Below are positions 2,371-59,845 of a stretch of DNA of 64,000 nucleotides, in pieces. The first letter of the stretch is position 1. Every line of letters begins with the position of its first letter. Position numbers and translations under genes: made by a program. Origin of the DNA: a virus. The stretch spans positions 29,290 through 93,289 of IMG/VR virus record IMGVR_UViG_3300026078_000023; one strand, given 5' to 3'. Below the pieces are notes generated by a model. It saw only the letters and a program-made list of their open reading frames with translations. It was not told the origin of the DNA and made no database searches.

Positions 2371-2438
2371 GTGCTTGTCTCCGTTCGCGTGGTTGGTGAG
2401 GTGGTGTCTTCGTGTCGTTCGTGTGTTGGCCGGAGGTT

Positions 2439-2918
2439 CTACCTCGGCCGCCGGTCTCGGATCGACGGGTCGTTCTCGGCCTGCACCCGGAGGTCGGCCC
2501 CCAGGGAGACCAGCATCTCGCGCTTGGCGTTCACGGCGTCGACCATGTCCTGGGCCCGGGACTTGTTCGCCGCCACCTCCGCCACCTTCCGGCGAGCCCC
2601 CTGGTACTCCTCGTCGAGCACCAAGGCGTCGGCCGCCTGGTCCTCGGTCAGCGGCTTGATCTTCGTCCCGGCGCCGGCCGTTTCGATCTCCTCGAGCCGG
2701 GCCTTGCGGACGGCGGTCTTCACCCGCGCCTCCACCACCTCGAGGTCGAGCTCGGCGACCCGGAGCGCGAAGGCCGCCTCCGTGCGCTCGCTCAGCCAGC
2801 GGTGCAGCGTGGACGGGAGCTGGACGTACTCCTCCTGGATGGCCCCCGGCCGGATGGAGACGGCCCGCCGGATCTCCGCGGCGGTCTCTTGCCCCTGGGG
2901 CTTGACTGGCGCCGCCAT
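2439..2918 (-). CDS. UvsY-like recombination mediator
   Basis: Helical 159-aa protein with pattern IQEEYVQLP...LTEDQAADALVLDEEY...DAVNAKREMLVSLGADLR; lies next to the SSB and RecA genes. Confidence 0.65.
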   Translation of the reverse strand: MAAPVKPQGQETAAEIRRAVSIRPGAIQEEYVQLPSTLHRWLSERTEAAFALRVAELDLEVVEARVKTAVRKARLEEIETAGAGTKIKPLTEDQAADALVLDEEYQGARRKVAEVAANKSRAQDMVDAVNAKREMLVSLGADLRVQAENDPSIRDRRPR

Positions 2919-3469
2919 CAGCGCGCCAGCGCCTGCTTGAGGGCCTCGGTGAGTTTGCCGGCCAAGACGGCGTCGACCTGCGCCTTGACCGAGGTGCGCG
3001 CCTCGTCGACGACCTTGGTCATTTCCCTGGAGAACACCTCCTGCACGGCGGTGTGGATCATGCTCTGGAGCAGCGTCTTGTTGCTGCTCCGGTCGCCGCT
3101 CGGTGAGTTGAGGGACGTCACCACCAGCTCGGCGATGGTCCTGCGCTTCAGCTCCTTGCCCGAGTACACCTCGTGCTCGGGGATGCCCTCGGCGATCACG
3201 CGCGCCACCTCGGCGCCGACCAGGTCGCGCACGACCTCCGGGGTGATGGTGTTGACCGCCTCCTGAGCGCGCCGCTGGATCTCCTTCTGCGCCTGCTCCT
3301 TCCAGCCGCGCGCCACGATGATGCTCTCGAGCGCGCCGGTCATGACGTGCTCGAGCGCCGACACTGGGATCCCGCCGATCATCACGGTCGTCGCCTGCGA
3401 CGCCGCCTGGTTCGCGCGCGCCTCCTCGTACTCCCGCTCGTCTGGTTCTTCCGATCCGAATTCGCTCAT
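2918..3469 (-). CDS. Hypothetical helical protein
   Basis: ORF with SD (GAGGAG), typical codon bias, coupled to the downstream gene. Confidence 0.7.
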   Translation of the reverse strand: MSEFGSEEPDEREYEEARANQAASQATTVMIGGIPVSALEHVMTGALESIIVARGWKEQAQKEIQRRAQEAVNTITPEVVRDLVGAEVARVIAEGIPEHEVYSGKELKRRTIAELVVTSLNSPSGDRSSNKTLLQSMIHTAVQEVFSREMTKVVDEARTSVKAQVDAVLAGKLTEALKQALAR

Positions 3470-3500
3470 CTCGATCTCCTCTCGCGTTCGTCGTCTTCGT

Positions 3501-4076
3501 TCAGAGCAGGTCCTCGCAGGTGGCCTCGACGCGCTCGCGGAGCACGTCGGGCGGGACCACCTCGAGCACCGGGACGGCTCCGGCTGCCTGGAGCTGGGCG
3601 CAGGCGCGGTAGGCCTCCTCGGCCGTCTCGCACCCCTGCCGGCGGAGGGCCAGGACGAGCTGGCGCATGGTCTTCACCTTCGCGAGCGCCCCGACGTCCA
3701 GCCCCGATCCACCAGCAGGAGCGGCACCTCCGGCGGGTCCCGGCGGAACAGCGGCGACAGGTCCACCTGCCCGCCGTGGGACAGGGCCAGGAGCATCCGG
3801 TCCTGAACCGGCAGTACCACCAGTGGCGGCAGGGACGGGACCACCATCGGTGGCCGCGCCCGCTCCGCCTCGAACCACCTCCGGAGTTTCCGCCGGCCGA
3901 GCCGGTTGAGACGCCCCCGGTGCACCAGGAGCACCTGCTTTCGCCGCCGAGCCCTTCGCTTCGATGCCATGCGCTTCCCCCTCCTTCGCCGGACCCAGTG
4001 CGTTGCGGAACGCGAGGAGCGTGTCCAGGAACACCTGCTCCGACGAGTCACCTTCGATCTCGATCTTGATCCTCAT
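3501..4076 (-). CDS. Hypothetical protein with Ala/Gly/Pro-rich linker
   Basis: Start MRIKIEIEG overlaps the upstream stop (ATGA) and lies 7 nt after a CCGGCCAACAC motif. Confidence 0.7.
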   Translation of the reverse strand: MRIKIEIEGDSSEQVFLDTLLAFRNALGPAKEGEAHGIEAKGSAAKAGAPGAPGASQPARPAETPEVVRGGAGAATDGGPVPAATGGTAGSGPDAPGPVPRRAGGPVAAVPPGPAGGAAPAGGSGLDVGALAKVKTMRQLVLALRRQGCETAEEAYRACAQLQAAGAVPVLEVVPPDVLRERVEATCEDLL

Positions 4077-4372
4077 GCCCGACGTGTTGGCCGGGGCAGG
4101 ACGGTCCCGCACTCGCGGCACACGTGGACCACGTCTCCGAGGCCGATCCCGATGGTCGAGCAGACCACATCGAGGACGCTCATCCGGACGCGCAGCCGCC
4201 TCCCTCGCTCCAACCTGGACACGAACATGACGCTCCTGCCGAGTGCGGCGGCGACGTCTTCCTGCCTGACGCCGATTCGCTCGCGGGCCAATCTCAGCGC
4301 CGCGCCGATCCCGGGCGTCGCCGACACCCAGACCTCCTTCTTCGCCCGCGGCCTGCGGAGGTCAGGCATCAC
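4073..4372 (-). CDS. XRE-family HTH regulator with C-terminal CxxC
   Basis: IGAALRLARERIGVRQEDVAAALGRSVMFVSRLERG; C-terminal CRECG. Confidence 0.8.
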   Translation of the reverse strand: MMPDLRRPRAKKEVWVSATPGIGAALRLARERIGVRQEDVAAALGRSVMFVSRLERGRRLRVRMSVLDVVCSTIGIGLGDVVHVCRECGTVLPRPTRRA

Positions 4373-5751
4373 GGACCCGGGTCGTCTGGGGCGTCATAAA
4401 AGGCGGTGTAGCGCCCGTCCCACTGGACCGGGACCTGGCCCTCCACGTCGTCGCGGAACTTCGCGACGATGAGGGTCGCGTCCACCGGACCGCCGTTCCC
4501 CCGGTCGGCCTGGTCGCGCCACGGGAACATGACCACGTCGGCGTCCTGCTCGAGGGCGCCCGACTCGCGGAGGTCTGAGATGCGCGGGGGGCGCGGCTTC
4601 TTGTCCTTGGTCGCTTCGCGCGACAGGTGGACGATGAGGACGATCGTGATGCCGGTCGACTCGGCCAGCTTCTTGAGCGTCCTGGACATCATGTCGACGT
4701 CGGCCTTGCGGTCGCGCCCCGGATCCTCGGGGACCGTGAGGGACATCGAGTCGATCGCGACGACCTTCTTCGGCACCTCCCCCTCGCCGCGCGCAGCCGC
4801 GGCGCTGTTCACCGCGTAGGCCCACCGCCTGATCTCGGCGATCATGAGCTCGAACGTCAGGTCGTTCCGGTCGTCGATGGTGAGCGGAGCGGGGTCGAGC
4901 CTCTTGCCGGCCTCGTTGATCTGCCACCACTCGTCCTTGTTGAGCCGCGCGTGCTTGATCTTGCGCGCCTCCACCTTCGCGATGAACGAGATCATCTTCT
5001 CGACGATGCGCTGCTCGCCCATCTCCTGGCTGAAGAACAGCGAGTGGGCGGCGTCCGAGAGCGCGACCCGGACGAGCGTCGTGAGCACGTAGCTCGTCTT
5101 CGCGGCGCCGGGGCGACCGGCGACGATCACGTAGCCGCCGACCGGCCACCCGCCGAACTTGTCGTCGAAGGCGCGGATGCCGGTCGGGATCGCCACCGCG
5201 TGCTTCTTGCCCTCGCGCGCCTCCACCCGCTCGAGCACGCGCCCGACCACCTTGCCGACGCGCCGGGGTCCGTTCTCGCGCGCGTACGATCCGATCTGCT
5301 CGAGGTGACGCAGGTACTCGCCGGCCAGCTCCTCGGCGCTGGCGGCGGCGCCGTACGCGCGCCCGACCATCTCGCTTCCGTACGCGATCAGCTTCCGGAG
5401 CTCGGATTTCTCGCGCACGATGCGCGCGTAGTGCATCACAGCCTCCGACGTCGGGACGATGTTCGAGAGCTTGAGCAGGTACATCTCCCCGTCGGGGAGC
5501 CCTGACATCCGGTGCTTGTCGCGCAGGCGAGACGCGATCGTGATGACGTCGACCGAACTGCCGGACGCCTCCACCTCCTCGATCGCCTCCCAGATCTCCC
5601 GGTGCATCGGGAGCAGGAAGTCCTCCGTGCCGACCACCGCGCGCACGGCTGCCAGCCGCCCGGGCGCCTGTAGGATCGCGCCCAGCACCGCCATCTCGGC
5701 GTTCGGGTCACCGGGCGTCTTCCGCGTCCGGCCGTCAGTGGGCAGCGCCAT
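4369..5751 (-). CDS. dnaB: Replicative DNA helicase DnaB
   Basis: AEMAVLGAIL N-domain, IPTGIRAFD, AGRPGAAKT, FFSQEM, HLSR, PRISDLRESGALEQDADVVMF, IVAKFR. Confidence 0.95.
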   Translation of the reverse strand: MALPTDGRTRKTPGDPNAEMAVLGAILQAPGRLAAVRAVVGTEDFLLPMHREIWEAIEEVEASGSSVDVITIASRLRDKHRMSGLPDGEMYLLKLSNIVPTSEAVMHYARIVREKSELRKLIAYGSEMVGRAYGAAASAEELAGEYLRHLEQIGSYARENGPRRVGKVVGRVLERVEAREGKKHAVAIPTGIRAFDDKFGGWPVGGYVIVAGRPGAAKTSYVLTTLVRVALSDAAHSLFFSQEMGEQRIVEKMISFIAKVEARKIKHARLNKDEWWQINEAGKRLDPAPLTIDDRNDLTFELMIAEIRRWAYAVNSAAAARGEGEVPKKVVAIDSMSLTVPEDPGRDRKADVDMMSRTLKKLAESTGITIVLIVHLSREATKDKKPRPPRISDLRESGALEQDADVVMFPWRDQADRGNGGPVDATLIVAKFRDDVEGQVPVQWDGRYTAFYDAPDDPGP

Positions 5752-6231
5752 CTACCGCACCAGGCGCTGATCGCACGCGATGGCGTCGAGGACGATCCGC
5801 GGGCGCGGAAGGATGCAGACCACCCCGGGCGGCAGTCCGTTCGTCACCTGGATGAGGACGCCCTCGCCGCCGTTCACCTTGGCGCGCGGGTTCCGGCACG
5901 CGAGGCCGGCGCGGTGCTCGCACGGGCCGCAGAGCCGCGGGAAGGAGCCGGGGACCCCGGTCTCCCGCGCGTAGAGGCGCGGGTGCGCCGTCACCGCCCG
6001 GGAGCACCGCTCGTGGTCGCGCGCCACGAACACTAACGCCGCGTCGCCGGCGATCGGCCAATCACGCTCGTCGTGCTCGCGGAAGACCACCAGGTCCTCC
6101 GGGCTTCCGGGCGGGAGACCGCACAGGTTGCAGGCGGAGAGCGGGTCGCTCGGCCTTCGCGGGTGCCGGCTGAGCGGGACCGACTGCTGGATCGCCTTCG
6201 GGTCGTACTTCGGCTGGGGAGCTCGTCGCAT
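5752..6231 (-). CDS. Cys/His-rich hypothetical protein
   Basis: CNLCG, CGPCEH and other Cys pairs; a variant class II motif (CAGGCCAACAT) lies upstream. Confidence 0.6.
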   Translation of the reverse strand: MRRAPQPKYDPKAIQQSVPLSRHPRRPSDPLSACNLCGLPPGSPEDLVVFREHDERDWPIAGDAALVFVARDHERCSRAVTAHPRLYARETGVPGSFPRLCGPCEHRAGLACRNPRAKVNGGEGVLIQVTNGLPPGVVCILPRPRIVLDAIACDQRLVR

Positions 6232-6436
6232 GCTTGAACCTCGCCTCGATGTTGGCCTGACGCTCCGGGTGCGCCGTGAACCGCATGCAGGGTTGCTCGA
6301 CGGCTGGCTGGTTCTTGGCCAATTTGACCTGCCACCCGCGGCGCCGGAACCGGGTGACGCACGCCGCGCACATGATCTCGTGGCTGTCCCACTCGCGCTT
6401 GATCTCGTAGACCAGCCCGCGCGCCAGCGCGCTCAC
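6062..6436 (-). CDS. Possible small hypothetical protein (CAAC motif); overlaps the next gene
   Basis: GTGA overlap with the DnaC-like stop; VSALARGLVYEIKREWDSHEIMCAAC; the 170-nt 3' overlap makes it uncertain. Confidence 0.4.
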   Translation of the reverse strand: MSALARGLVYEIKREWDSHEIMCAACVTRFRRRGWQVKLAKNQPAVEQPCMRFTAHPERQANIEARFKHATSSPAEVRPEGDPAVGPAQPAPAKAERPALRLQPVRSPARKPGGPGGLPRARRA

Positions 6437-7098
6437 GAGACGCGCCGCCCGCGCAGGCTCTCGCCTTCGAATTGGATGAAGGCGCCGAGGGAGCGGACGC
6501 GCTCGGCCACCCGCTCGAAGCGGTACCGCGCCCGCACGTCGTCGACGAGGAGGTTCGTCGTCACGATCGTCAGGCGATGGTCCTCTGCGCGGCTGACGGT
6601 GACCTCCTCGAACAGCGTCCAGAACGACCCGCGCTCGTCGTTGAACTCGCTGCCCAGGTCGTCGACCACCAGCACCTGCGGCGAGAGCAGCCGGTCCACC
6701 TCGTCGGCGTCGTAGCGGTTCCAGCGCGCCAGCTGCATCGAGCGCACGAACAGCGCGCTCGAGACCCCCGGCCGCGTCGCCGCCCAGCACGCCGCCACCG
6801 ACTTCCCGGTCCCGACCCTCCCGGCCAAGAACACCAGGCTCTCGTGCGGGGCGAGCGAGCGCACCGCCGCCATCGGTTCCGTCAGGGTCGTCCCGGACTC
6901 CGCGAGCAGGACGTCCGCGATCACCCGCGGGACCCCGACCTCGTCCCGCATCCACCGCGCCTCCGCCGCGCGCCGCTCGGCTGCCTCCTCCCGCTCGGCC
7001 GCCGCCGCCGCCGCGATACCCTCGTCCGTCTTCGACCACGCCTCGAGGCGCGGCAGGTAGTCGCCGAACGTCTCGCCCTTCGCGCGCACCGGCTTCAC
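6433..7098 (-). CDS. DnaC/IstB-like AAA+ helicase loader
   Basis: GRVGTGKS Walker A, VLVVDDLGSE Walker B, TIVTTNL, ERVAERV, GESLR; GTG start overlaps the initiator stop. Confidence 0.9.
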   Translation of the reverse strand: MKPVRAKGETFGDYLPRLEAWSKTDEGIAAAAAAEREEAAERRAAEARWMRDEVGVPRVIADVLLAESGTTLTEPMAAVRSLAPHESLVFLAGRVGTGKSVAACWAATRPGVSSALFVRSMQLARWNRYDADEVDRLLSPQVLVVDDLGSEFNDERGSFWTLFEEVTVSRAEDHRLTIVTTNLLVDDVRARYRFERVAERVRSLGAFIQFEGESLRGRRVS

Positions 7099-8009
7099 AG
7101 CCCGACCCTCCCGGCCTTGAACGCGCCGCTCGAGACACCCGCGTAGCCGACGCCGTTCGACCTGGCCGCCCCGTTCCGCGGCCTGGCAGGCAGCCACTCC
7201 TGGTTGTGGCACTTGCCGTTGAACCACGTGGACAGGTCCTTCACGAACCCGGCCGCCGGCCGGTCCGAGAGCATGTACGCCGACCAGCTGGCGGCGACCA
7301 GGTCGAGCGGCGGCCGGCCGACCTTCACCCACGCGCGGTGGGCGGCGTCCTTCCCACCGCGCCGGCCGGTGACCGCCCAGATCGCCTCGAAGACCTCCGT
7401 GTAGCGCGGGGGGCGCGGCGGCGCGGCGGCGGCGCGCGGAACCTCCGGGTCTGCCTCTCCCGGAAGAGGCACAGAGACCAGACCAGGGATCACCGCTTGG
7501 TTCCCGGGGTTAGTTTTCGTTTTCGGCTCGGGCACATTTGTTTGTTCCGATCCGAAGGATCGGATGGAGGGAACGGGAAGGGGGGGAGAGGAGGGGAGAG
7601 GAAGGGAAGGGGGTTTCGCTTCGGTTTCCGTCCGCTTAACCGACCGGTTTACCGGTAGGTTTTCAGGTTCGGAAATCGCAGGCTTTTTTGGCCTACCCTT
7701 GCTTTTCGCACCGTTCGCGCGCTTGGACTCGACCAGGCGCTGGCCGTGGTAGTCGTAGGCCTCGACGAAGAGGCCCCCGTCGACCCACTTGCAGAGGGAC
7801 GCCTCGGTCGCCGCCTCGACGTCTTCTTGGGTCACGCCGGCGCACAGCATCAGCGCCCGGGCGCTGGACAGGCGAGTGAGCGGGAGCGTGTCCGTCTCGG
7901 CCTTCGCCGCGGCCGCCGCCAGCCTGAGCCAGACCCCGACGGCCGCGTGGGGGGCGTCGGCGAAGGGTGGGCGGTTGAGGACCTCCTGGTAGACCGCCGC
8001 GAACTTCAC
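7095..8009 (-). CDS. Phage replication initiator (lambda O/replisome-organiser-like)
   Basis: N-terminal winged-helix-like region, low-complexity linker, C-terminal FEAIWAVTGRRGGKDAAHRAW...FVKDLSTWFN; directly upstream of DnaC and DnaB. Confidence 0.75.
   Translation of the reverse strand: MKFAAVYQEVLNRPPFADAPHAAVGVWLRLAAAAAKAETDTLPLTRLSSARALMLCAGVTQEDVEAATEASLCKWVDGGLFVEAYDYHGQRLVESKRANGAKSKGRPKKPAISEPENLPVNRSVKRTETEAKPPSLPLPSSPPLPVPSIRSFGSEQTNVPEPKTKTNPGNQAVIPGLVSVPLPGEADPEVPRAAAAPPRPPRYTEVFEAIWAVTGRRGGKDAAHRAWVKVGRPPLDLVAASWSAYMLSDRPAAGFVKDLSTWFNGKCHNQEWLPARPRNGAARSNGVGYAGVSSGAFKAGRVGL
7480..7710. other. Putative replication origin inside the initiator gene
   Basis: Local drop in GC, repeated GGTTT/GGTTC words, purine tract 7565-7612, perfect hairpin TCCGATCC-GAA-GGATCGGA at 7546-7564. 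Confidence 0.45.
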
Positions 8010-8010
8010 C

Positions 8011-8138
8011 GGCGACCCCCGCGTGTCGCCTGAACAACCCGTCCCGTCTCGCGGAGCCCCCCCGGTGACCCTTGCCTAGGGGGCCACATGGTTGGACGAG
8101 CGCAACGGGTTGACCAGGGGACACGCGAGGATGTCGCC
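8011..8138 (-). ncRNA. Long imperfect rod-like hairpin (cis-leader or small RNA) immediately 5' of the initiator start
   Basis: Arms 8011-8042 and 8105-8138 are near-perfect reverse complements; inner stems continue the pairing. Confidence 0.5.
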
Positions 8139-8234
8139 ATCGGGGGAAGCTCCTTAGTTTTGGGGACCGGAAGAGGAACCCGGGTCGGCGATTTTCGCCG
8201 GCACGGTAGGCAGGCGGAACGATACCCGATTTTG

Positions 8235-8810
8235 TTACAGACCGGAAACGCGACCCTCCCGGCCGACCAGGCGGGCGACCGCGGCGCGGGCGCGTTCGTA
8301 CGCGCCTGGTTCGTTCCAGGCGCGGCAGAGGCCGCTCGGGTGGGGCAGGGACACGTACGGGACCGAGATCGCCTCGCCTTGCGCGAACCAGACCCCTTCC
8401 GCGAAGGGTTCGTATGGCACCCGGAACGCCTGGGCGACCCTGGCGCCCAGGAAGACCATGGGCAGCCGGCACGCCCGGAGGGCCTCGAGGCCGACCTCGG
8501 CGGCCCGCTCCCTGGCCTCCGCCAGGCGCCACGTCCGGCGGCACAGGTTCACCCGGCGGAAGTCCCGCACGTAGGTGCGGACGTCGACCCCCAGTACCAG
8601 CCGGCACAGGCGGTCCCCGGACGACCCGGCCGGCTTCGGGAAGAGGGCCATCTCCGGGCGGCCGCCGTAGGGGTTCGCCTCGCCGACCAGGACGGCGATG
8701 CGGGCGTCCTCGAGCAGCGGGTCGCGCCACCGGTGGCTCGGCAGGACGATCGCCGCCGCGATGTTGTCGACCAGGGCCTGGTCGATTTTGACCTTGGGTT
8801 TGTTTTTCAC
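8235..8810 (-). CDS. Uracil-DNA glycosylase superfamily protein
   Basis: VLVGEANP, SSGDRL, RVNLC, VFLGARVAQAF, LPHPSG motifs; GTG start overlaps the helicase stop. Confidence 0.75.
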   Translation of the reverse strand: MKNKPKVKIDQALVDNIAAAIVLPSHRWRDPLLEDARIAVLVGEANPYGGRPEMALFPKPAGSSGDRLCRLVLGVDVRTYVRDFRRVNLCRRTWRLAEARERAAEVGLEALRACRLPMVFLGARVAQAFRVPYEPFAEGVWFAQGEAISVPYVSLPHPSGLCRAWNEPGAYERARAAVARLVGREGRVSGL

Positions 8811-10222
8811 GTCACCCTCCCGATTGTCGCCGGTTCGACGATGCGGACGGTGTACCCGCGCGACCGCCAGGCCTCGACCCGGGCCCTGGCGTGGGCCTCG
8901 AGCCACTTGTTCCCCTGGTCGTAGATGTCCAGGAACGTCACCGTGCGCGGCTTGCCCTCGCAGACGCGCATGATGCGGCCGACCTTCTGGAGGGCGTCGA
9001 TCCGGCTGGCGCCGGCGCCGGCGTTGACGGCGCCCTCGACCTCCGGGATGTCGATCCCCTTGTTGAACACCTTGCTCGTCACGAGGACATCGCGGAGGCC
9101 GACCTTGAGCTCGTGGATCGCGCGGTTGCGCTTGGCGGTGTTGCTGGCGCCCTCCACGAACGTCGTGCGGACGTACCCGTCGAGCATCCGCGTCAGCGCG
9201 CGCCCGTGCGGCAGCTTCGAGAAGAACACCATCGACGGGCGCGGGCACAGCTGGCGGTTGATGACCAGGCTCCGGACCAGCGCGTTCCTGGCCTCATTCA
9301 GCGTCACGCCGGCCTCGTACACGACCGGGAACGAGCCGGTCATCTTCCCGTGGCGGTGGCGCACGCAGAAGATCTGAGGGTCGCACAGCCACCCGGCGTC
9401 GATGAGCGGTCGCGGCTGCACGTCGTGGATGAGCGGCCCCAAGATCCCCACCGCGCGGTAGTCGGCCTCGTCAGACCGCTCGAACGGCGTCGCCGAGAAC
9501 CCGAGCCGCCACCAGGCGCGCTCGCAGGCCATGGCCACCTTCGAGAACTCGTCGGCCGACAGGACCTGCACCTCGTCCCCGATCACCCCTTCGGTCTCCT
9601 CGAGGAGCTGCCGGACGCGCGGTTCACCCATGTTCTTGTGCAGCGTCTGCAGGGTGGCGACCGTGTAGCGGCGCGGGTTCCACTCCCCGTCACCCGCCAG
9701 GCCGGCGACCTCGCCGGTGCACTGGTAGAACCGGTCCGCCGCCTGGTGCATGAGGTCCTTCGTGTCCACCAGGACGAGCCACCGGCACCGGACCGCGCTT
9801 CCGATCGCCGAGAAGCACTGGGTCTTCCCGCTGCCGGTCGGCATCGACACCACGCCGCGCCCGCGGCGGAGGATCGCCTCCACGGCGACGTGCTGGTAGT
9901 CGCGGAGCCACCCGAACCCGGCAGCCCGCGCCATCGCCGCGTCCCGGTCCCCGCCCGGCGCCGGCGGGCGAGCGTCGACGAAATCGAGGGCGACCCCCGC
10001 CTCCCGCGCGCGCCCGGCCACCATGCGCGACAGGCCGGCCAGGAACCGGCTCTGCTTGCGCGAGAACAGGTGGACCGTCCCGTCCCACACCCCGGCCTCG
10101 TACGCCTCTGAGTACTCGGCGCCGGGGGGTTCGACCGTCAGGTAGCCGTCCAGCCAGTCGAGCTCGGCCGGCGTGGCGCCCTCGACGCGCGCCCACGTGT
10201 TGTCAGCGACGACGCGCATCAC
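8807..10222 (-). CDS. SF2 DNA helicase (UvsW-like)
   Basis: LRDYQ, MPTGSGKT, GDEVQ, FSATP, VFNKGIDIP, QKVGRIMR. Confidence 0.9.
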   Translation of the reverse strand: MMRVVADNTWARVEGATPAELDWLDGYLTVEPPGAEYSEAYEAGVWDGTVHLFSRKQSRFLAGLSRMVAGRAREAGVALDFVDARPPAPGGDRDAAMARAAGFGWLRDYQHVAVEAILRRGRGVVSMPTGSGKTQCFSAIGSAVRCRWLVLVDTKDLMHQAADRFYQCTGEVAGLAGDGEWNPRRYTVATLQTLHKNMGEPRVRQLLEETEGVIGDEVQVLSADEFSKVAMACERAWWRLGFSATPFERSDEADYRAVGILGPLIHDVQPRPLIDAGWLCDPQIFCVRHRHGKMTGSFPVVYEAGVTLNEARNALVRSLVINRQLCPRPSMVFFSKLPHGRALTRMLDGYVRTTFVEGASNTAKRNRAIHELKVGLRDVLVTSKVFNKGIDIPEVEGAVNAGAGASRIDALQKVGRIMRVCEGKPRTVTFLDIYDQGNKWLEAHARARVEAWRSRGYTVRIVEPATIGRVT

Positions 10223-10497
10223 GCAAATTTCTTACGGAGTCCCAGGTCGATGAGGAGCTTCTCGACCTGACGCCCGTCCATCACCAGCAGCGTGCCGGTC
10301 ACCTCGAACGACACGCCGCGCTCGTCGACGTCGTCCACCTTCCACCCGTCCGGGAGCGGGTGCAGGAGGTCGTTCTCGTCGATCGCCTCGAGCTTGGCCG
10401 CCAGCTCCGGTCCAGGGTCGGCGTGGATCTCGAACTCGACCACCAGGTGGTCCCACGGCGTCCCCGGTTCGCCGTACTTGTTCCGCCTCACGGTCAC
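10219..10497 (-). CDS. Hypothetical protein
   Basis: Translationally coupled ORF (VTVRRNKYGEP...). Confidence 0.6.
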   Translation of the reverse strand: MTVRRNKYGEPGTPWDHLVVEFEIHADPGPELAAKLEAIDENDLLHPLPDGWKVDDVDERGVSFEVTGTLLVMDGRQVEKLLIDLGLRKKFA

Positions 10498-10805
10498 GCC
10501 GCCCTGCGCTTCCTGGGCCGCTGGGCCGGCGCCGGCTGCTTCTTCGGCTGCCCCTGGAACGCCTCCGGGACCTTGCGCTTCAGGTCCGCCAGGCTCGCGT
10601 AGACGCTCATCCGCCCGGCCCCCCATTTCCGCTTGCGGACCTCCCCCAGGCGGATCCAGTGGTAGATGTTCGACCGGACGACCTTCGCAAGCTCGGCCGC
10701 CTCTTCGATGGGGACGAACGGCCCGCCGTCCGCCGCGGGGACCGAGTACATCACGGCGTTCCTGGCCTCGAGCATCGCCTTCTTCTTCGGGTCTTGGATC
10801 TTCAC
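10494..10805 (-). CDS. Excisionase/AlpA-like winged-HTH DNA-binding protein
   Basis: IEEAAELAKVVRSNIYHWIRLGEVRKRKWG. Confidence 0.7.
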   Translation of the reverse strand: MKIQDPKKKAMLEARNAVMYSVPAADGGPFVPIEEAAELAKVVRSNIYHWIRLGEVRKRKWGAGRMSVYASLADLKRKVPEAFQGQPKKQPAPAQRPRKRRAA

Positions 10806-10978
10806 GGTTGCCTCTCGTGTTGGGGGTTGTTGGTCATCGAGGCGCGCACCTTCTCGAGCGCCTCGAGGAACGTCGGGATCTTGGCCGTCTCCATCAGCTC
10901 GGCCGCCAGCTCGCGCTCCAGCTCCTCGCGGGTCAGGCCCGGCCGCGTCGTCTCCTGGTCGAACCCGTCGCTCGTCAC
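10802..10978 (-). CDS. Small hypothetical protein
   Basis: GTGA-coupled 58-aa ORF (VTSDGFDQ...). Confidence 0.5.
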   Translation of the reverse strand: MTSDGFDQETTRPGLTREELERELAAELMETAKIPTFLEALEKVRASMTNNPQHERQP

Positions 10979-11601
10979 GGCAGGACCGCCTCGGCCTCCT
11001 GCAGGGCCTCCCACAGCACGCCGGCGCGGGACGACGAGAGCGCGTGCCGAACGCGGAGGGCGGCGCGCTGCACCTGGTCCCGCCACAGGCCGGTCGCCTT
11101 GACGATCTCGGTGGTGTCCATCGCCGGCCCCTCGAGGCCGACCATGAGCGCGCCCACCTGCCGCGCGTCGTTCGGGAGCCGGCGGAGCGCCCGCTCCACC
11201 TCGCGCCGCCAGCGCACCCGCGCCGCCGCCGCCTTCAGGCGCGCCTCCGGGAGGCCCTCCACCTCGAGGGCGGCGTCCTCCGGGCTCTCCACCGGGAAGA
11301 TGACCTTCTCGGCCGGGACGCGGATCTGCAGCCGGCCGGCGAGCCCGGCCTTGGCCACGGCGCGGGAGATCGAGGTCGCGCTCAGCCACTTGTGCACGAG
11401 CGCCCCGACCGCGGTGACCATGCCGCGGTAGTAGTACGGCTCGGCCCTGCCGCGGCTGGGCTTGTAGTAGTTGGCCATCTCGAGGCCGACGAGCAGGGAC
11501 TCCTGCAGGATGTCGTCGCGCATGTGGGGTGGGAAGTGCTGGCCGAGGTGGCGGGTTACGGCCTGGGCGGCGCGCTCGATGGGGGCGTGGTCGACGGACA
11601 T
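10975..11601 (-). CDS. Phage-encoded sigma-70 family RNA polymerase sigma factor
   Basis: Region 2-like RDDILQESLLVGLEMANYYKPSRG..EPY; region 4-like ALRRLPNDARQV...MDTTEIVKATGLWRDQVQR; SD GGAGG. Confidence 0.75.
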   Translation of the reverse strand: MSVDHAPIERAAQAVTRHLGQHFPPHMRDDILQESLLVGLEMANYYKPSRGRAEPYYYRGMVTAVGALVHKWLSATSISRAVAKAGLAGRLQIRVPAEKVIFPVESPEDAALEVEGLPEARLKAAAARVRWRREVERALRRLPNDARQVGALMVGLEGPAMDTTEIVKATGLWRDQVQRAALRVRHALSSSRAGVLWEALQEAEAVLP

Positions 11602-11735
11602 GGGATCCTCCTGGTTGATTCTGACGTGGGGTATCGGAGCCTTGACGATTGGCTGCTTGGGTCTCACTCTGTCGGGAGCAGGCGCGTTCCTCCCTGGTTC
11701 GTGCCGTGGGGCTAGGCGGCCTCCCCGGGTCCAGG

Positions 11736-12029
11736 TCAAGCGTCACTGGACCCGGGGGGCATCCTCAGCGGGTTCCGGTGAGTAAGCTCGCGGCGCACCA
11801 CCCGGAGGACGACGCCGTCGCCAGCCACCCGGAGTTCACCTTCCTTGGTCTCCGCCAGGCGCTGGCCGTAGGCCATCAGGAGCTCGTAGGGGTCCACCAC
11901 GACCTCGACCGTTAGGTCCTCGATCCCGGTCACGACAGGACTCAGGAACCCCTTTCCGTCCGGCGCTAACACGGGCGCCTTGATCGCGTGGCGGATCCGC
12001 CCGGCGGGCATGGTGAGTTTGACGCTCAC
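11736..12029 (-). CDS. Hypothetical protein
   Basis: GTGA-coupled ORF VSVKLTMPAGR... Confidence 0.55.
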   Translation of the reverse strand: MSVKLTMPAGRIRHAIKAPVLAPDGKGFLSPVVTGIEDLTVEVVVDPYELLMAYGQRLAETKEGELRVAGDGVVLRVVRRELTHRNPLRMPPGSSDA

Positions 12030-12595
12030 CGCGCCTCCAGGTGCTTGCCGTAACGGACGTGGAGCGACTCGGAGCCCTCGGGGTCGCGGCACAGGTACTC
12101 GCGGCCGCTGGGGGCGATCTTGTCGACCACCAACTCGGACAGGAACGCGGCGGCGTACAGGCCGGACCCGGTGTACTTGGGGAGGAACTTTTTGGCGACG
12201 CGGACGGCGTCGCCGACCTTGAAGCGCGGCGCCTTCGGAGGCCGCCCGGCGGGGACGCGCTCCGAGTCGATGACCTGCAGGTGCGGGACCGCGCCGGTGA
12301 ACGATGCCGACCCCAGCGCGCCCCTCGCGGCGAGGAGGGCGACCGAGGCGTCCGAACCCGGCTTCGCGCTCTCGTTCGCGATCGCAGCGGCCACCACAGC
12401 GACGGCCTTCTGGCGGACCACCTCGGCACGCTCGAGGGCGCGGGCGAATTTGTACCAGGCGGACGGTTTGCCGGAGCGGCGCGCGGCCCTGGGTTCGGCG
12501 GGTTTCTTCGCGCTCGCGGCAGCGAGCGCGGCGCCGCGGAGGGCGGGCGTGACGGAGGCGGTGTCGTTCGTCGACGGCTTCGTGGGCTTGGCCAT
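12026..12595 (-). CDS. Basic hypothetical protein with SH3-like C-terminus
   Basis: SD AGGAG before MAKPTK; FKVGDAVRV motif. Confidence 0.65.
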   Translation of the reverse strand: MAKPTKPSTNDTASVTPALRGAALAAASAKKPAEPRAARRSGKPSAWYKFARALERAEVVRQKAVAVVAAAIANESAKPGSDASVALLAARGALGSASFTGAVPHLQVIDSERVPAGRPPKAPRFKVGDAVRVAKKFLPKYTGSGLYAAAFLSELVVDKIAPSGREYLCRDPEGSESLHVRYGKHLEAR

Positions 12596-12785
12596 GGTGG
12601 TCTCCTGGTTCGGTGGTTTCATGGGTTCGTGGGTTCGTGGTTGGCACCGCTGGCACGTGCGAGTCCGCCGCGGTGTCGTCCGGTTGCCTTTCCGGGGCGC
12701 CGCTGCAGCGGCGTTGTCCCGGCCCTCGCTTGCTGAACGGACCGTGCGAGCCCGGAGGCGACCCTCCGGGCCCGAGGCGGTCAGC

Positions 12786-13883
12786 TCAGGCCGCCTTGAG
12801 TACGTCGCCGGCCAGCCGCTCGAGCTCCAGCTTCTTCTCGGGCTCGGCGGTGTTGCGGGCGACCAGGCTGATGGCGTTCGAGAAGCGCCACATGGTGTTC
12901 CCCGGGGGGAGCTCGACGACGTCGGGGGAGTTGAAGGCCTCGGCGATCTTCTCGGCGTCGCCCACCAGGACCTTCTTCTTCAGGCCGGCGAGGGTGACCT
13001 TGGGGTCGATGCCCTGGGCGTGGGCCGCGGTGATCTTCCCGGCGGTCTCGGCGATCTTGGCGTCGGACAAGAGCGCCCGGGCGGTGTCGCGCGCGGCCAG
13101 CGTGGCGACCCGGGTGTCGGCCTCGAGCGTCTGCCGCGACCACTGGATGTCCTCGGAGAGGGCGCGGCCGAGGTGGACCTGGCGGAGGTTCTGCTCCATG
13201 GTGGCGCCGTTGAAACAGGCCAGCCGGAAGGCGAAGGTGCGCAGGCTGTTGGCGCCGGCGCCGAAGTCGCTGTTCGACCAGGCGAACCCGAACACCATGA
13301 ACTCGCCGGGCGCCGGCTCGATGATGCGGGGGACGATGAACTTCATCTCGCACCGGATGTCGGACATGACGCCGTCGACCACCACGGCGCCGACCCGCTG
13401 GGCCTCGCCGACCAGGACGTCGAGGATGGGCCGCGCGTCGATGCGGCGGAACTTGTCGCTGAGGACCGCGCGGACGTTGCCGCCGGCCGCGCGCACCAGG
13501 TAGCGCGCCTTCGCGTTCCCGAAGTGCAGGCCGTCGGTCAGGTTGCGGGCCACCAGCTCGCGGCCCCACTCGCCCTGGCCGAGGAGGTGGTCGACGTACG
13601 CCATCGGCATGGACGCCTGAGAGGCGACGTTGCCGAGCGCGTGGCGGTGGAGCGGAGCCGCCACCGCGGTCCGCCCGTCCGCGGTGCCGACGTTGAGCAC
13701 CAGGCGCCCGCCGTCAGCGTCAGAGACGGTCATCCGCGTGGCGGGCGAGATGTAGTCGGCCGGGACCTCGCGGGCCACGCGCTCCATGGTGGCGACGGCC
13801 CGGACCTGGCCCTCTTGGATGTAGCGGTCGAGGCGGCCGGTGGCGATGGACTTCTGCTCCGGGGTCGATGCGATCAGCGTCAT
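12786..13883 (-). CDS. DUF932/DUF945-family protein
   Basis: RAVLSDKFRRID, FAWSNSDFG, FRLACFNG, H.GR, TMWRFSNAIS; strong SD AAGGAG before MTLIAST. Confidence 0.8.
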   Translation of the reverse strand: MTLIASTPEQKSIATGRLDRYIQEGQVRAVATMERVAREVPADYISPATRMTVSDADGGRLVLNVGTADGRTAVAAPLHRHALGNVASQASMPMAYVDHLLGQGEWGRELVARNLTDGLHFGNAKARYLVRAAGGNVRAVLSDKFRRIDARPILDVLVGEAQRVGAVVVDGVMSDIRCEMKFIVPRIIEPAPGEFMVFGFAWSNSDFGAGANSLRTFAFRLACFNGATMEQNLRQVHLGRALSEDIQWSRQTLEADTRVATLAARDTARALLSDAKIAETAGKITAAHAQGIDPKVTLAGLKKKVLVGDAEKIAEAFNSPDVVELPPGNTMWRFSNAISLVARNTAEPEKKLELERLAGDVLKAA

Positions 13884-13951
13884 TTGTGGCTCCTTCGTTC
13901 GTGCGTTTGTGGGTTTGTGGCGCCGGGCCCAACCGCTGCCCGACGCAGACA

Positions 13952-13980
13952 TGATTACCGTAATGAAAAACCGTTCGCAA
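13952..13980 (-). promoter_or_regulatory. Putative early promoter with TTTTCATTACGGTA box
   Basis: TTGCGA-17-TAATCA on the minus strand in an AT-rich gap; shares a 14-bp box with 15217-15230. Confidence 0.55.
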
Positions 13981-13983
13981 ATG

Positions 13984-14011: not shown

Positions 14012-14023
14012 ACGGTGGGGCGA

Positions 14024-15212: not shown

Positions 15213-15242
15213 GGTATACCGTAACGAAAACTTAAACGCCAA
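15213..15242 (-). promoter_or_regulatory. Putative early promoter with TTTTCGTTACGGTA box
   Basis: TTGGCG-18-TATACC with AT-rich UP-like element; 13/14 match to the box at 13956-13969. Confidence 0.55.
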
Positions 15243-16515: not shown

Positions 16516-16526
16516 ATGTTGGCCGG
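16516..16526 (-). promoter_or_regulatory. CCGGCCAACAY motif (class II), 7 nt before the RuvC ATG
   Basis: Same 11-mer at 2423, 4084, 45674, 55996 and 59828. Confidence 0.65.
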
Positions 16527-45666: not shown

Positions 45667-45693
45667 CTCGACGATGTTGGCCGGTCGCGCCCC

Positions 45694-55482: not shown

Positions 55483-55974
55483 TCACCCGGCGAAGATCAG
55501 GTCCAGGACCGCGATCGCCGCCGCCTCGCGCGCCTCGCGCTCGCCGAAATCGGCCCTGTTGAACCGGTCGAAGAGCAGCATGGCGACGTTCGCGACGTAG
55601 GTGTGCCGGAGGTCGGCGTCGCCCTCGAAGGCGTTCGCCATCGTCCGGCGCGCGGCCATGAACCTGTCCGAGAACACCGCCTCGTTCACGCGCTCGGCCA
55701 GGAGCAGCGCCATGGCCTCCAGGAGCACCGACGCGTTGACCGCAGCGGCGGCCGTCTCGGGGCGGAGCGCGGACGCCTTCTCGCGGACCATGGACTCGAC
55801 CCACCCGCGCGCCCGCTTCACGCTCATCACCGGGAGGGCGGGTCCGCCGCGATCCACCTCGAGCAAGATCTGCGCGAACGCCTCCCCGAGCTCGCCGTCG
55901 AACTCCTTCTCCCGGTTCCCGGGCGTGGTCCACGCTTGAGCTGCCAATCCACGCGCTGCCTCGATGGTCATCAT
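55483..55974 (-). CDS. Hypothetical protein
   Basis: SD GGAGG; class II motif upstream. Confidence 0.65.
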   Translation of the reverse strand: MMTIEAARGLAAQAWTTPGNREKEFDGELGEAFAQILLEVDRGGPALPVMSVKRARGWVESMVREKASALRPETAAAAVNASVLLEAMALLLAERVNEAVFSDRFMAARRTMANAFEGDADLRHTYVANVAMLLFDRFNRADFGEREAREAAAIAVLDLIFAG

Positions 55975-56010
55975 GCGGTCTCCCTCCTGCCCGGTGTGTT
56001 GGCCGGTGGT

Positions 56011-57872: not shown

Positions 57873-58573
57873 CAGGACCCGAACGTCCGCGAGACAGGGC
57901 CGCAGTAGCCGTTGCCGTCCGGCCACGGGGTGGCCCCGGAGTACCCGACCACCCAGTAGGGCGCGAAGGCGTTCGTCCCGCCGACCTGCTGCAGGCCGGC
58001 CACCGGCACCGTCACCGGCCAGGACTTTACCGGGCCGTTGGCGACGTGGCCGTACACGTTGCAACTGAGGACGGCGGTGTTGTAGAGCACGGCGTATTGC
58101 GACGAGTACGCCATCGTCGCCGTGGGGCAGCTGATGGTGGACACCGCCCGATCTGGGTTGTTGAAGAGGTACGCGAACGACCCGCCGACCGTCGTGTGCC
58201 AGACCGCCGGCATCGTCCCCGGCGGGGGGAAGCCGTCGTAGCTCTGGTAGATCGTGGTGTACATCCGGTACGAGACGGTGTTCGCGCAGATGTAGGGACC
58301 GTCGCGGTTCACGGCGTCGCTGACCGAGCCGACCACGAAGTCGTAGACCACGTAGTGGTACGGAGTCCACAGCGCCGAATTCGTCGGCGTCGCGTCGTCG
58401 TGCACGTCCGGGCGCGGCGGTGGGATCTCCGCCGGCATCGGCATCATGGTCGGCGTCACGGCCGCCGCCGGCTGCACGTCGTCCCCGCACCCGCTGAGCA
58501 GCGCCCCCGTGCACGCCACCGCGCACGCCGTCGCCAGCACCAGCATCCCTCGCCTGTATCTCTCGATCGTCAT
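57872..58573 (-). CDS. Lipoprotein
   Basis: Basic N-terminus, hydrophobic core, LSG-C lipobox; SD GGAGG. Confidence 0.75.
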   Translation of the reverse strand: MTIERYRRGMLVLATACAVACTGALLSGCGDDVQPAAAVTPTMMPMPAEIPPPRPDVHDDATPTNSALWTPYHYVVYDFVVGSVSDAVNRDGPYICANTVSYRMYTTIYQSYDGFPPPGTMPAVWHTTVGGSFAYLFNNPDRAVSTISCPTATMAYSSQYAVLYNTAVLSCNVYGHVANGPVKSWPVTVPVAGLQQVGGTNAFAPYWVVGYSGATPWPDGNGYCGPVSRTFGS

Positions 58574-58624
58574 CGTCGCCTCCTCGGTTCGTTTGTTTTC
58601 CGGTATTCGGTCGTGATTAAAGAT

Positions 58625-58831
58625 TCACCTCAGGTCGTCGATCAGGCGCTCGACCAGCTGCGCCTCGCTGCGCGACACGCCGCCGAGCATGATCTGTCGG
58701 TCGAGCCACGCCTGCACCGCGCGCGACGGCGACGACTTCTCCTCCGAGCACACGTGGTGGAGCGGGCCGTTTCCGTTCGAATCGAAGTAGACGACGGGGT
58801 TCTCCTTCGACCCGTCCATCGGCGTGCTCAT
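58625..58831 (-). CDS. Small hypothetical protein
   Basis: ATGA-coupled ORF. Confidence 0.5.
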   Translation of the reverse strand: MSTPMDGSKENPVVYFDSNGNGPLHHVCSEEKSSPSRAVQAWLDRQIMLGGVSRSEAQLVERLIDDLR

Positions 58832-59820
58832 TCGTCGAACGCCTCCACGTTGGTCTTCTCGTCGAACGCCTCCACGTCGATCTCGTCGTAGACGTGGCCG
58901 AGGACGCGGACCGAGGTGACGCCGTGACGCTCGAGCAGCGGCGCGAGGCGCGCGGCAATCGGCCTCACCTCCTCTCCTTCGCGGTCGTGGAACTCGAGGA
59001 CCAGCGTGAAGCCGAGCGATCCGGGGTCGGGTTCCAGCCGCAGTTCGTACTCGCCGCCCGGGCAGTTGTGGTCATACGGCGGACCCTCTTCGGACCACCG
59101 TTCGATCTCCGCCTCGATCTCGTGGATGGCGGTGTCGACGGCCTTTCGAGCGAGGCCGAGGGGGGTGCCTTCGATCTTGAGCTGCTTCCGTTGCACCGGC
59201 GGTGCCTGCTGCGCCTGCCACTCGGTCAGGTGGTTCTTTAGGAGCGCGGCCGCGACGACGTCTTCGGTGACGGCCATCCTCAAGTACGACATGTCCTCGA
59301 CCACCGCGAGCATCTCCTTGACGCCGAGGCCGCCGCGGCGAGCAAGTGTCGCTAGGTCTTGGTCGTGATTCTTGATGGCCTGCGCCTCGTGCGGCGCCAG
59401 GAACGCCCACGGCACGGTGAGGATGCCGAGCTTGTGGTCATCGGAGTGGACGGGGAAACCGACGGGCGCCGGAGGCGGCGCCTCCGGTCCGGGCCGCTCG
59501 CCAGCGCGCTCCTCCAGTTCGGCGGCGTGGTGGATGAGAGAGATCAGCGCCTTCGATCCCTTGTCGAACTCGACCCAGTCGATGATGTCGTAGCGGTCGC
59601 AGAGGACGCGCCCCCGGTCGGTGACCCGGAACGTGTATTTGCCGCTGTCGACGGTGACCTTCGTGTCTGCCATGGGGTTCCTCTCGGTTGGTGTGCTGTC
59701 GGGCGGCGTCACCTCTACCAGGCCGTAGTTGACGGTCCCGAACCCGGCGTGGCACCGGGCGCCCTCCGGGACGTCCCCGTGGTCCTGGATCTCGAACCGG
59801 CGGAAGTAGCGCGTCGCCAT
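58828..59820 (-). CDS. Multi-domain hypothetical protein (possible internal start at 59673)
   Basis: Start 7 nt after CCGGCCAACAC; VPW.....HE.QA..NH.Q.L..LA.RGGL module. Confidence 0.65.
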   Translation of the reverse strand: MATRYFRRFEIQDHGDVPEGARCHAGFGTVNYGLVEVTPPDSTPTERNPMADTKVTVDSGKYTFRVTDRGRVLCDRYDIIDWVEFDKGSKALISLIHHAAELEERAGERPGPEAPPPAPVGFPVHSDDHKLGILTVPWAFLAPHEAQAIKNHDQDLATLARRGGLGVKEMLAVVEDMSYLRMAVTEDVVAAALLKNHLTEWQAQQAPPVQRKQLKIEGTPLGLARKAVDTAIHEIEAEIERWSEEGPPYDHNCPGGEYELRLEPDPGSLGFTLVLEFHDREGEEVRPIAARLAPLLERHGVTSVRVLGHVYDEIDVEAFDEKTNVEAFDE

Positions 59821-59845
59821 GCCCCAGGTGTTGGCCGGCGGCGGC

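Follow-up and report, generated by a model that had tools for sequence, protein, structure and literature searches.

A CCGGCCAACAY word in the -10 position as the probable single element of a promoter class in an uncultured phage that encodes a divergent sigma factor

The 11-base word CCGGCCAACAY, written out as CCGGCCAACA(C/T), is repeated in the position of a -10 box ahead of about 15 genes of an uncultured high-GC phage. We think it probable that this word is the single element of a phage-specific promoter class, and we regard the phage's own sigma factor as its likeliest reader. Counted from the transcription start, the element would cover positions -18 to -8; CAACAY would take the place of the -10 hexamer, CCGGC would extend it upstream in the manner of an extended -10, and the class would specify no -35 element. 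Transcription would begin 8 nt after the motif, so that at 8 of 15 sites the start codon's own first base, A or G, would be the +1 of a leaderless mRNA, and at the other 7 the +1 would be the first base of a 10- to 45-nt leader. The reader would be host core RNA polymerase carrying the sigma-70-family protein encoded at 10975-11601, and expression of this sigma would in turn depend on a second kind of promoter, the host-type TTACGGTA class, which has a -35 box.

RESULTS

Occurrence, strand bias, and variants of the motif

The window, that is, the whole 64,000-nucleotide stretch analyzed (positions 29290-93289 of the phage genome, G000), contains six exact copies of CCGGCCAACAY, all on the minus strand and each at the coordinates given for it by the first-pass annotation, and none on the plus strand. 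Shuffled sequence is expected to hold 0.10 copies in the window, and 0 of 100 shuffles reached 6. Across the whole genome (93,289 bp) the exact copies number 11, with the plus strand again free of them; since all of the approximately 152 genes are encoded on the minus strand, the copies lie on the coding strand. Within the window the 8-mer core GGCCAACA occurs eight times, likewise on the minus strand only. Both variants that had been reported near 6249 and 62083 are real (Table 1), and two more, CCGGTCAACAT and GAGGCCAACAC, are found in G000 beyond the window, giving 15 promoter-like sites in the genome (11 exact copies and 4 close variants).

Nine of the 11 exact copies fall entirely in noncoding DNA, which makes up 5% of the genome, and 10 of 11 end no more than 60 nt from a called start (P = 1e-9). 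The claim that copies always sit just upstream of a gene start holds for the 11-mer and fails for the 9-mer core GGYCAACAY, given that 3 of its 18 copies in G000 are intragenic (62254, 23434, and 3257). We agree with the earlier observation that no common -35 is visible, as the information content upstream of the 11-mer nowhere exceeds 0.5 bit, either across the 15 G000 sites or in the G001, G003, and G005 sets. A canonical sigma-A promoter was considered and rejected; there is no TTGACA-like -35 box, and the hexamer part is CAACAC at 10 of the 15 sites and CAACAT at 5 rather than TANNNT.

Table 1. Features of the window; promoters, transcription starts (+1), and leaders are predictions.
Feature	Position	Strand	Sequence	Spacing, +1, or leader	Gene or context
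Promoter	2423..2433	-	CCGGCCAACAC	+1 = A at 2415; 45-nt A/C-rich leader with GGAGA	ATG 2370 of gp32-like SSB (1261-2370)
Promoter	4084..4094	-	CCGGCCAACAC	7 nt to ATG 4076	Within last codons of gene 4073-4372; ORF 3501-4076, 191 aa, middle part Ala/Gly/Pro-rich
Promoter (variant)	6249..6259	-	CAGGCCAACAT	+1 = A at 6241; 10-nt leader	ATG 6231 of 159-aa gene, then DnaB-like helicase (4369-5751)
Divergent sigma-70-family protein, candidate motif reader	10975..11601	-			208 aa; sigma2 and sigma4, without sigma3
Core of separate promoter class with -35 box	13956..13963	-	TTACGGTA	TTGCGn, 17 nt, TAnnnn	After terminator
Second copy of this class	15217..15224	-			Follows terminator and A/T-rich stretch
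Promoter	16516..16526	-	CCGGCCAACAT	7 nt to ATG 16508	RuvC-like resolvase (15927-16508)
Promoter	45674..45684	-	CCGGCCAACAT	7 nt to GTG 45666	ORFan 44509-45666, 385 aa
Promoter	55996..56006	-	CCGGCCAACAC	+1 = A at 55988; leader with GGAGGG	ATG 55974; gene 55483-55974, 163 aa
Leaderless promoter	59828..59838	-	CCGGCCAACAC	7 nt to ATG 59820	ORFan 58828-59820, 330 aa
Promoter (variant)	62083..62093	-	AGGGTCAACAT	+1 = A at 62075; leader with GAGGGAGG	Overlaps portal stop codon; ATG 62059; ORF 61682-62059, 125 aa
-10 box of canonical leaderless portal promoter	63850..63855	-	TAGTCT	TTGCTG, 18 nt, TAGTCT, 6 nt, ATG	Portal

Spacing to start codons

Eight of the 15 sites have a start codon exactly 7 nt past the motif. 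Seven of these are exact copies (7 of 11; binomial P = 2e-9), 3 of them beyond the window; the other four are the starts for which this spacing had been proposed, and it holds for every one of them, including the GTG. Each of the seven starts at +8 opens an ORF of 89 to 385 amino acids. At the remaining 7 sites, where a leader mostly carries a clear Shine-Dalgarno sequence, the eighth base after the motif is A (5 sites) or G (2 sites), on a strand of G000 in which A accounts for 16% of bases. These purines at the predicted +1 support the -10 geometry, in which the start sites are themselves positions deduced from the sequence.

The same genome provides a ruler for this distance. Canonical leaderless promoters in G000 (portal, 31355, 17234, 16820, and others) are of the actinobacterial type, in which TANNNT typically precedes the start by 6 to 7 nt, and here carry TANNNT 6 to 8 nt ahead of an ATG or GTG, and we took the one at the portal gene as the internal measure of the distance from -10 box to ATG. 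By this measure, CAACAY followed by 7 nt would stand exactly in the -10 position. The two kinds of site share the spacing from hexamer to start, the A at hexamer position 2, and the purine at +1. They differ in that the motif has no -35, has CAACAY instead of TANNNT, has an extra invariant 5-nt extension upstream, and is invariant over the whole 11-mer rather than degenerate. The leaderless, -10-only geometry put forward in the first-pass annotation is thus supported by the canonical leaderless spacing, the purines at leadered +1 positions, and the same register and junctions in related phages.

Genes downstream of the motif

The targets had been described as SSB/RecA, RuvC, and accessory genes. 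The gp32-like SSB and the RuvC-like resolvase stand, and RecA as the product of 1261-2370 was rejected for want of any RecA match. The motif at 45674..45684 directly adjoins a hairpin and T-run terminator downstream of the major capsid gene, and Pfam and PHROG searches with gene 58828-59820 gave no match. Assignment of the promoters to a "middle" class is unsupported, given that the sites are spread over virion and replication modules alike.

The sigma-family protein and its own promoter

The protein at 10975-11601, which had been called a sigma factor, has no Pfam match when searched alone. The profile of its family, compared with solved sigma structures, gave a best whole-protein E value of 3.6e-11 (SigA, regions 2 and 4), with profile positions 12-122 aligning to region 2 of SigA, RpoS, and FliA and positions 130-198 aligning to region 4 of SigA and RpoD. 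Sigma70_r2 (PF04542) is matched by 30 of 41 family members and is carried by a 43% identical homologue, and a weak NCBIfam SigM match covers residues 120-194. The AF2 model has a pLDDT of 91.6, and among the Foldseek matches listed almost all are sigma factors (E of ~1e-3), with low TM because of domain orientation. A sigma2 domain (regions 2.1-2.4) is thus indicated by the family profile and by PF04542 in relatives, and a sigma4 helix-turn-helix domain by the profile, the SigM match, and AF2/Foldseek. Judged by profile and predicted fold, this is a real but divergent sigma-70-family protein, and the call made earlier is upheld. A tblastn search with it against 50,697 cultured phage records found nothing at E <= 1.

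The TTACGGTA promoter at 13956..13963 heads the operon that runs from 13883 to the sigma gene. In G001, G003, and G007, too, an TTACGGTA element precedes the sigma gene, by 82 to 190 nt, and the class is present in all four near-complete sigma-bearing phages. It is a host-type class with a -35 box, distinct from the CCGGCCAACAY class.

Replacement of the motif in related phages

The motif changes among relatives while keeping its place. G001, whose sigma is 44% identical, has 11 copies of GGYCAACAY on the coding strand only. G003 (sigma ~29% identical) lacks GGYCAACAY and has seven copies of CGGACAATGATC, coding strand only, which keep the register to the ATG. They stand at three orthologous junctions, those of the RuvC-like gene, of the gene that follows the terminase ATPase, and of the one that follows "...PEMLGE". 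At the RuvC-like junction, G001 has GGCCAACAT where G003 has CGGACAATGATC. G007 (sigma ~23% identical) has nine copies of GCTAACT, coding strand only, six of which are the full CGGGCTAACTTC, and CGGGTAATATCC was found in G005 and G004. The same-register versions in relatives are CGGA-CAATGA-TC, which stands at the same gene junctions as the motif in G000, CGGG-TAATAT-CC, and CGGGC-TAACTT-C; common to all versions are GG at -16/-15 and A at -12/-11.

With one discovery script, a motif was recovered in four of four near-complete sigma-bearing phages (G000, G001, G003, and G007) and in none of four near-complete, sigma-less distant relatives (G006, G008, G010, and G011). Two partial genomes depart from this pattern. 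G005 (68% complete) has a motif, and no sigma was found in that part; its sigma may lie off the contig, because the entire RuvC-to-sigma block is missing there. In G009, a 38% fragment with the sigma present, no motif was found. A further point against pairing the sigma with the motif is that the motif is common to G000 and G001, whose sigmas are only 44% identical and differ at the positions aligned with sigma70 Q437 and T440.

DISCUSSION

We infer the pairing of sigma and motif, and with it the order of the cascade, from circumstantial evidence: the two co-occur, they diverge in step, and the sigma gene lies behind a different promoter class. This pairing is a correlation across few, related genomes. 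A host-type -10 hexamer, TANNNT, carries T at both ends; given that CAACAC lacks both, it is unlikely to be read by the host primary sigma.

The motif could instead be a promoter read by a host sigma, primary or alternative, perhaps with a phage co-factor, and the phage sigma would then serve another class such as TTACGGTA. Two observations that count against our pairing fit this explanation. The phage sigma has a sigma4 domain, yet the -35 of the motif class is unconserved, and it is the TTACGGTA class that has a -35 in all four phages; furthermore, the hexamers of G005 and G007 (TAATAT and TAACTT) are canonical TANNNT sequences that a host sigma could read. The presence of a motif in G005, where the sigma went undetected, points the same way, although the missing block there weakens this point. 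We nevertheless consider reading by a host sigma rather unlikely. The C at both hexamer ends of 10 G000 sites is far from TANNNT, and the whole 11- to 12-mers do not vary inside one genome but take different forms at the same junctions of close relatives, a pattern that a phage-encoded reader explains better than a shared host sigma. In addition, the conservation of the TTGCG/TTACGGTA element across the four phages is not matched by the predicted sigma4 recognition helix, which varies.

A signal acting in RNA, either a start-associated translation signal or a site at which polycistronic RNA is cut back to give leaderless ends, would suit the fixed 7 nt to start codons without a Shine-Dalgarno sequence at eight sites, and read-through transcripts of the co-oriented genes would include the motif. 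The motif is evidently not needed beside the start codon, because at 7 sites it lies 10 to 45 nt upstream, and the interval mostly holds an ordinary Shine-Dalgarno sequence. The motif has no Shine-Dalgarno-like content itself, no consistent RNA fold surrounds it (z of -2.1 to +1.7), there is no Rfam match, and its position is that of the -10 box in canonical leaderless promoters; we therefore hold such a signal to be improbable. The start-associated sequence of Cluster K mycobacteriophages, a translation signal of this sort, includes a Shine-Dalgarno core and is located 3 to 8 bp before every associated start, which it always abuts. It resembles the motif as a short conserved word a few bases before many starts in a phage of probable Actinomycetota hosts, and it was rejected as an identity for the motif on account of that missing Shine-Dalgarno content and the 7 of 15 sites at a distance. 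Least probable by our estimate is a DNA site for a factor other than RNA polymerase (a phage regulator's operator, or a Chi-like or packaging signal): strand specificity, over-representation, and strict conservation would fit, but the motif is asymmetric and neither an inverted nor a direct repeat, it occurs only at gene 5' ends with single-base spacing that Chi-like and packaging sites do not require, and no other promoter, whether TANNNT or -35 box, overlaps it.

A phage-sigma promoter with a single element is not unprecedented in kind, as phiEco32 gp36 and T4 gp55 illustrate. The gp36 protein reads the single element tAATGTAtA via a sigma2-like domain, and in the related phage 7-11 the promoters occupy comparable places in the genome and follow another consensus (PMC4331800, PMC8948821, PMC12276001). 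[quoted passage not shown] It differs in that its element is GC-rich, is 11 nt long, extends to -18, and lacks a T at either end of the hexamer, and in that most of its targets would be leaderless; no co-factor like gp79 of phiEco32 was identified in this phage. The sigma at 10975-11601 has no detectable sequence similarity to gp36, so that, given the tblastn result, the resemblance would be one of mode of action and not of family.

In T4, late promoters consist of TATAAATA at -10 and are read by gp55, a protein that is limited to a sigma2-like part and depends on gp33 and the gp45 sliding clamp. The likeness to G000 is the -10-only promoter with a phage-encoded reader of the sigma family, here a candidate one; the protein at 10975-11601 differs in its confident sigma4-like domain, and the element sequences are unrelated.

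A broader reading, which we advance only tentatively and would put at slightly under an even chance, is that an undescribed sigma-70 subfamily, carried by a clade of uncultured contractile-tailed phages of high GC content, has co-diversified with lineage-distinct promoters of a single 11- to 12-bp element. CCGGC-CAACAY and its three counterparts at the same junctions would then belong to natural sets of orthogonal sigma/promoter pairs that are free of a -35, can do without the near-universal T that ends the -10 hexamer, and make leaderless mRNAs.

In summary, our findings open no new category, given that one-box promoters read by phage sigmas are already known. If confirmed, they would lay out how an uncultured 93-kb rhizosphere phage organizes its transcription, with promoters of three classes: a host-type one with a -35 driving the sigma gene, a canonical leaderless class on virion genes, and the one-box class. 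They would also provide a small natural series of co-changed sigma/promoter variants, which could reveal which sigma2 residues read which hexamer positions and could yield compact, orthogonal parts for leaderless expression in high-GC bacteria.

RESULTS

G000 is a 93,289-bp IMG/VR phage record that is rated complete by CheckV and in which the window occupies bases 29290-93289. The sequencing runs containing its DNA, which is ~70% GC, are rhizosphere metagenomes. A codon-bias gene caller placed ~152 genes, every one of them on the minus strand, with products that include a portal, a major capsid protein, a MuF-like head protein, a gp32-like SSB, a RuvC-like resolvase, and DnaB-like and SF2 helicases. 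No cultured phage matched G000 at the DNA level; the closest capsid match among cultured phages is Streptomyces phage Kromp (33%), and an Actinomycetota host is plausible.

The six minus-strand copies of the 11-mer CCGGCCAACAY claimed in the first-pass annotation are all present, compared to 0.10 expected in the window, and the minus strand of the whole genome holds 11 copies, with the plus strand having none. Four additional sites at gene starts carry one or two mismatches (two in the window, plus CCGGTCAACAT and GAGGCCAACAC outside it), for a total of 15 promoter-like sites; three more copies of the 9-mer core GGYCAACAY sit within genes and lack the remaining features. Noncoding sequence makes up 5% of the genome, and 9 of the 11 exact copies are wholly noncoding, and for 10 a called start lies no more than 60 nt beyond the motif (p = 1e-9). 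The claimed 7-nt gap to the start codon was borne out, with ATG or GTG exactly there in 7 of 11 exact copies (p = 2e-9), opening ORFs of 89 to 385 aa. The motif is real and far beyond chance. Most first genes downstream of it are ORFans, and two of these have similar N termini (MRIKIEIEG... in the window, MKVKIEKLV... outside it; see the table). The former also has a long Ala/Gly/Pro-rich middle that misled frame-based gene callers into splitting the ORF.

At the seven leadered sites, where no start codon follows the 7-nt gap, the base in that position (+8, the predicted transcription start) is always a purine (five A, two G), the A content of the strand being 16%. Leaders at these sites are 10 to 45 nt long, and most contain a clear Shine-Dalgarno (SD) sequence. 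Information content by position gave the motif sharp edges, and all upstream positions hold ≤0.5 bit; therefore, there is no -35 box, in agreement with the original observation. The assignment of targets fared less well. The supposed RecA gene encodes the gp32-like SSB instead, and the description of a "middle" class that avoids virion genes is unproven, given that the replication and virion modules both contain sites, those in the latter lying after portal, after capsid, and before a MuF-like gene region. The site at 45674 lies immediately 3' of a hairpin and T-run terminator downstream of the capsid gene.

Coordinates of features in G000 and one relative
Feature	Sequence	Position	Strand	Detail
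Mismatched motif copies	window	6249-6259, 62083-93
gp32-like SSB gene	window	1261-2370
Sigma ORF	window	10975-11601	-	208 aa; SD GGAGG
TTACGG-class copies	window	13956-13963, 15217-15224	-
TTACGG-class copy	G000 genome	17116-17123	-
Canonical leaderless -10 boxes	window	63850-63855, 43541-43546, 36002-36007, 31362-31367, 17241-17246, 16827-16832, others	-
A/C-rich 5' leaders	window	2371-2415, 12623-12670, 13884-13930	-
ORFan with similar N terminus	window	3501-4076	-
ORFan with similar N terminus	G000 genome	14218-14487	-
Second weak sigma region 2 match	relative G007	G007:C1:42727-42882	+	E 1e-4

G000 also carries canonical leaderless promoters, which serve portal, tail, and other virion genes. 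That of the portal gene reads TTGCTG, 18 nt, TAGTCT, 6 nt, ATG, and TANNNT is likewise found 6 to 8 nt ahead of the start codons at 31355, 17234, 16820, 43534, 35994, 27544, and elsewhere. The class has a weak -35, an 18-nt GC-rich spacer, a TAGTCT- or TAGGCT-type -10, and 6 to 8 nt before ATG or GTG; a simple sigma-70 consensus scanner returned zero promoters in window positions 1-20000. Given this spacing, CAACAY plus 7 nt occupies exactly the position of the host's -10 hexamer, and CCGGC is an upstream extension placed like an extended -10 element.

Related phages carry their own versions of the motif. G001 (92,779 bp; capsid 79% and sigma 44% identical) has 11 copies of GGYCAACAY, all on the coding strand and arranged as in G000, with the 7-nt gap or a leader, and the 16.5-kb fragment G002 (capsid 90% identical) has two. 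G003 (87,462 bp; capsid 70% and sigma ~29% identical) has none and instead carries seven copies of CGGACAATGATC, with zero on the opposite strand and 0.01 expected. G005 and G004, both with a capsid 63% identical, carry CGGGTAATATCC 10 and three times, respectively. In G007 (83 kb; RuvC 46% identical, sigma present at ~23% identity), GCTAACT occurs nine times on the coding strand and never on the other, six of the nine being the full CGGGCTAACTTC. When aligned by start codon, all four versions place a hexamer at -13 to -8 (CAACAY, CAATGA, TAATAT, and TAACTT), have in common GG at -16/-15 and A at -12/-11, and show no -35 box. Three orthologous junctions have the element in each of G000, G001, and G003, with G003 using its own version. 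One precedes the RuvC-like gene, one precedes the gene that follows the terminase ATPase, and one comes after the gene ending ...PEMLGE. The intergenic sequence flanking the element is not conserved at these junctions, and therefore selection acts on the element itself, with its place constant and its sequence varying by lineage.

A search for further carriers of CCGGCCAACAYNNNGGNCATG gave 41 single matches across viral contigs. At 13 inspected viral loci with a repeated core, the copies lie within coding sequence (Pro-Ala-Asn-x-x-Ala-Met and similar), and the phages concerned have at most one protein match to G000; these matches are background and add no carriers. Motifs of the same kind, such as GTGTAA, GCACTGTT, and CATCGNGTA, occur in many other uncultured phages. 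Naive k-mer statistics were swamped by very long tandem hexanucleotide arrays in G007 (IMGVR_UViG_3300044819_000016) and G009 (IMGVR_UViG_3300037137_000983), with GGCTCC- and GCCGTA-type units and single 10-mers in 30 to 40 copies; these arrays probably encode repetitive proteins.

The proposed sigma factor on its own had no match in Pfam or PHROG and only weak matches to NCBIfam SigM. Homologues occur in metagenomes, and one of them bears Sigma70_r2; a profile search gave 57 relatives, 30 of 41 aligned family members match Sigma70_r2, and the family profile matched SigA, RpoS, SigB, and FliA in the PDB (E down to 3.6e-11), covering both regions 2 and 4. AlphaFold gave a confident model (pLDDT 91.6), and among the Foldseek matches listed for it almost all are sigma factors. 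Collectively, these results uphold the identification of the protein as a sigma, one that is divergent and has two domains. It had no match in 50,697 cultured-phage records. Locus searches with two of the sigma alignments found G001 alone among viral contigs, nothing among genome contigs, and, among metagenome contigs, a second G001 copy and three 1- to 3-kb contigs without the motif. G007 also has a second, weak region 2 match, which lies ~1.3 kb upstream of its main sigma gene and could represent either another sigma-like gene or a fragment.

The sigma gene is not located behind the motif. It is preceded instead by a third, strongly conserved promoter-like class with a -35 box, in which TTGCGn or TTGACn is followed by 17 nt of A/T-rich spacer, with TTACGG at its end, and by TAnnnn. 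One copy heads the sigma operon of G000, and in G001, G003, and G007 one copy precedes the sigma gene by 82 to 190 nt. The class is limited to these four near-complete sigma-bearing phages, with three or four copies per genome, often 3' of a terminator. The SSB gene and two genes heading the sigma operon are preceded by long A/C-rich, G-poor 5' leaders with the repeats ACGAAC, CCACGAACC, and CACAAAC, and G007 has a similar CAACCAACC leader; such leaders may enhance translation or form part of an RNA-based control.

DISCUSSION

CCGGCCAACAY is very probably a one-box promoter of the -10 type, as predicted from its position and geometry. A role as a signal for translation or RNA processing is unlikely, given that it also occurs away from start codons, which mostly have their own SD, and has no SD content itself; RNA folds around six sites were inconsistent (z -2.1 to +1.7), and Rfam found no family in the window. 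We considered an ECF-type -35, since GGCCAAC resembles GGAAC, and rejected it: the -10 would fall within ORFs, where nothing is conserved. We also rejected a CCGG...CCGG mini-hairpin spanning the motif, which is present at only about one-third of sites and lacks conservation in G001. Chi-like or packaging sites would have no single-base-precise tie to start codons.

The phage sigma is the leading candidate for the reader of this one-box promoter. CAACAC lacks both T's of TANNNT, which makes the host primary sigma a poor candidate. Within each genome the 11- to 12-mers are invariant, yet at shared junctions they differ from one relative to another, a pattern pointing to a reader encoded by the phage itself. 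The sigma fits this description, and it too diverges across these lineages. One unbiased discovery script recovered a motif of this kind from each of the four near-complete genomes that carry the sigma and from none of four near-complete genomes that lack it (G006, G008, G010, and G011), a contrast that weighs little because the sigma-less relatives are distant. Against the pairing, G005 has a motif and no sigma was found in the 68% of its genome covered, a contig from which the entire RuvC-to-sigma block is missing. The hexamers of G005 and G007 are canonical and could be readable by the host. Two further points also count against it: G000 and G001 have a common motif at just 44% sigma identity, and no -35 box is conserved despite the protein's sigma4 domain. 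Residues of the sigma2 helix, which spans positions 54-80 of the protein, were uninformative about specificity, since the positions aligned with Q437 and T440 of sigma70 are not the same even in G000 and G001, whose motif is. Taken jointly, a one-box promoter with the phage sigma as its reader is the best reading, which we infer with somewhat better than even confidence.

T4 gp55 late promoters consist of a -10 element only, as the predicted G000 promoters do. The mode of action proposed here also matches that of phiEco32, whose phage sigma gp36 uses its sigma2-like domain to recognize tAATGTAtA, the one element of the middle and late promoters; in the related phage 7-11, promoters at comparable places in the genome follow another consensus (PMC4331800, PMC8948821, PMC12276001). 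Among the same sources, the gp36 C-terminal domain touches the -35 region too, even though the promoters are single-element, which tempers the objection raised by the sigma4 domain. No homology between the G000 sigma and gp36 is detectable, and the system is therefore like that of phiEco32 in kind and outside the gp36 family.

The invariant TTACGG piece is unexplained by the needs of a host sigma and may be an operator. The position of the sigma gene behind the TTACGG class, and not behind the motif, fits a cascade in which a host-type promoter would drive expression of the sigma, which would in turn activate the one-box class.
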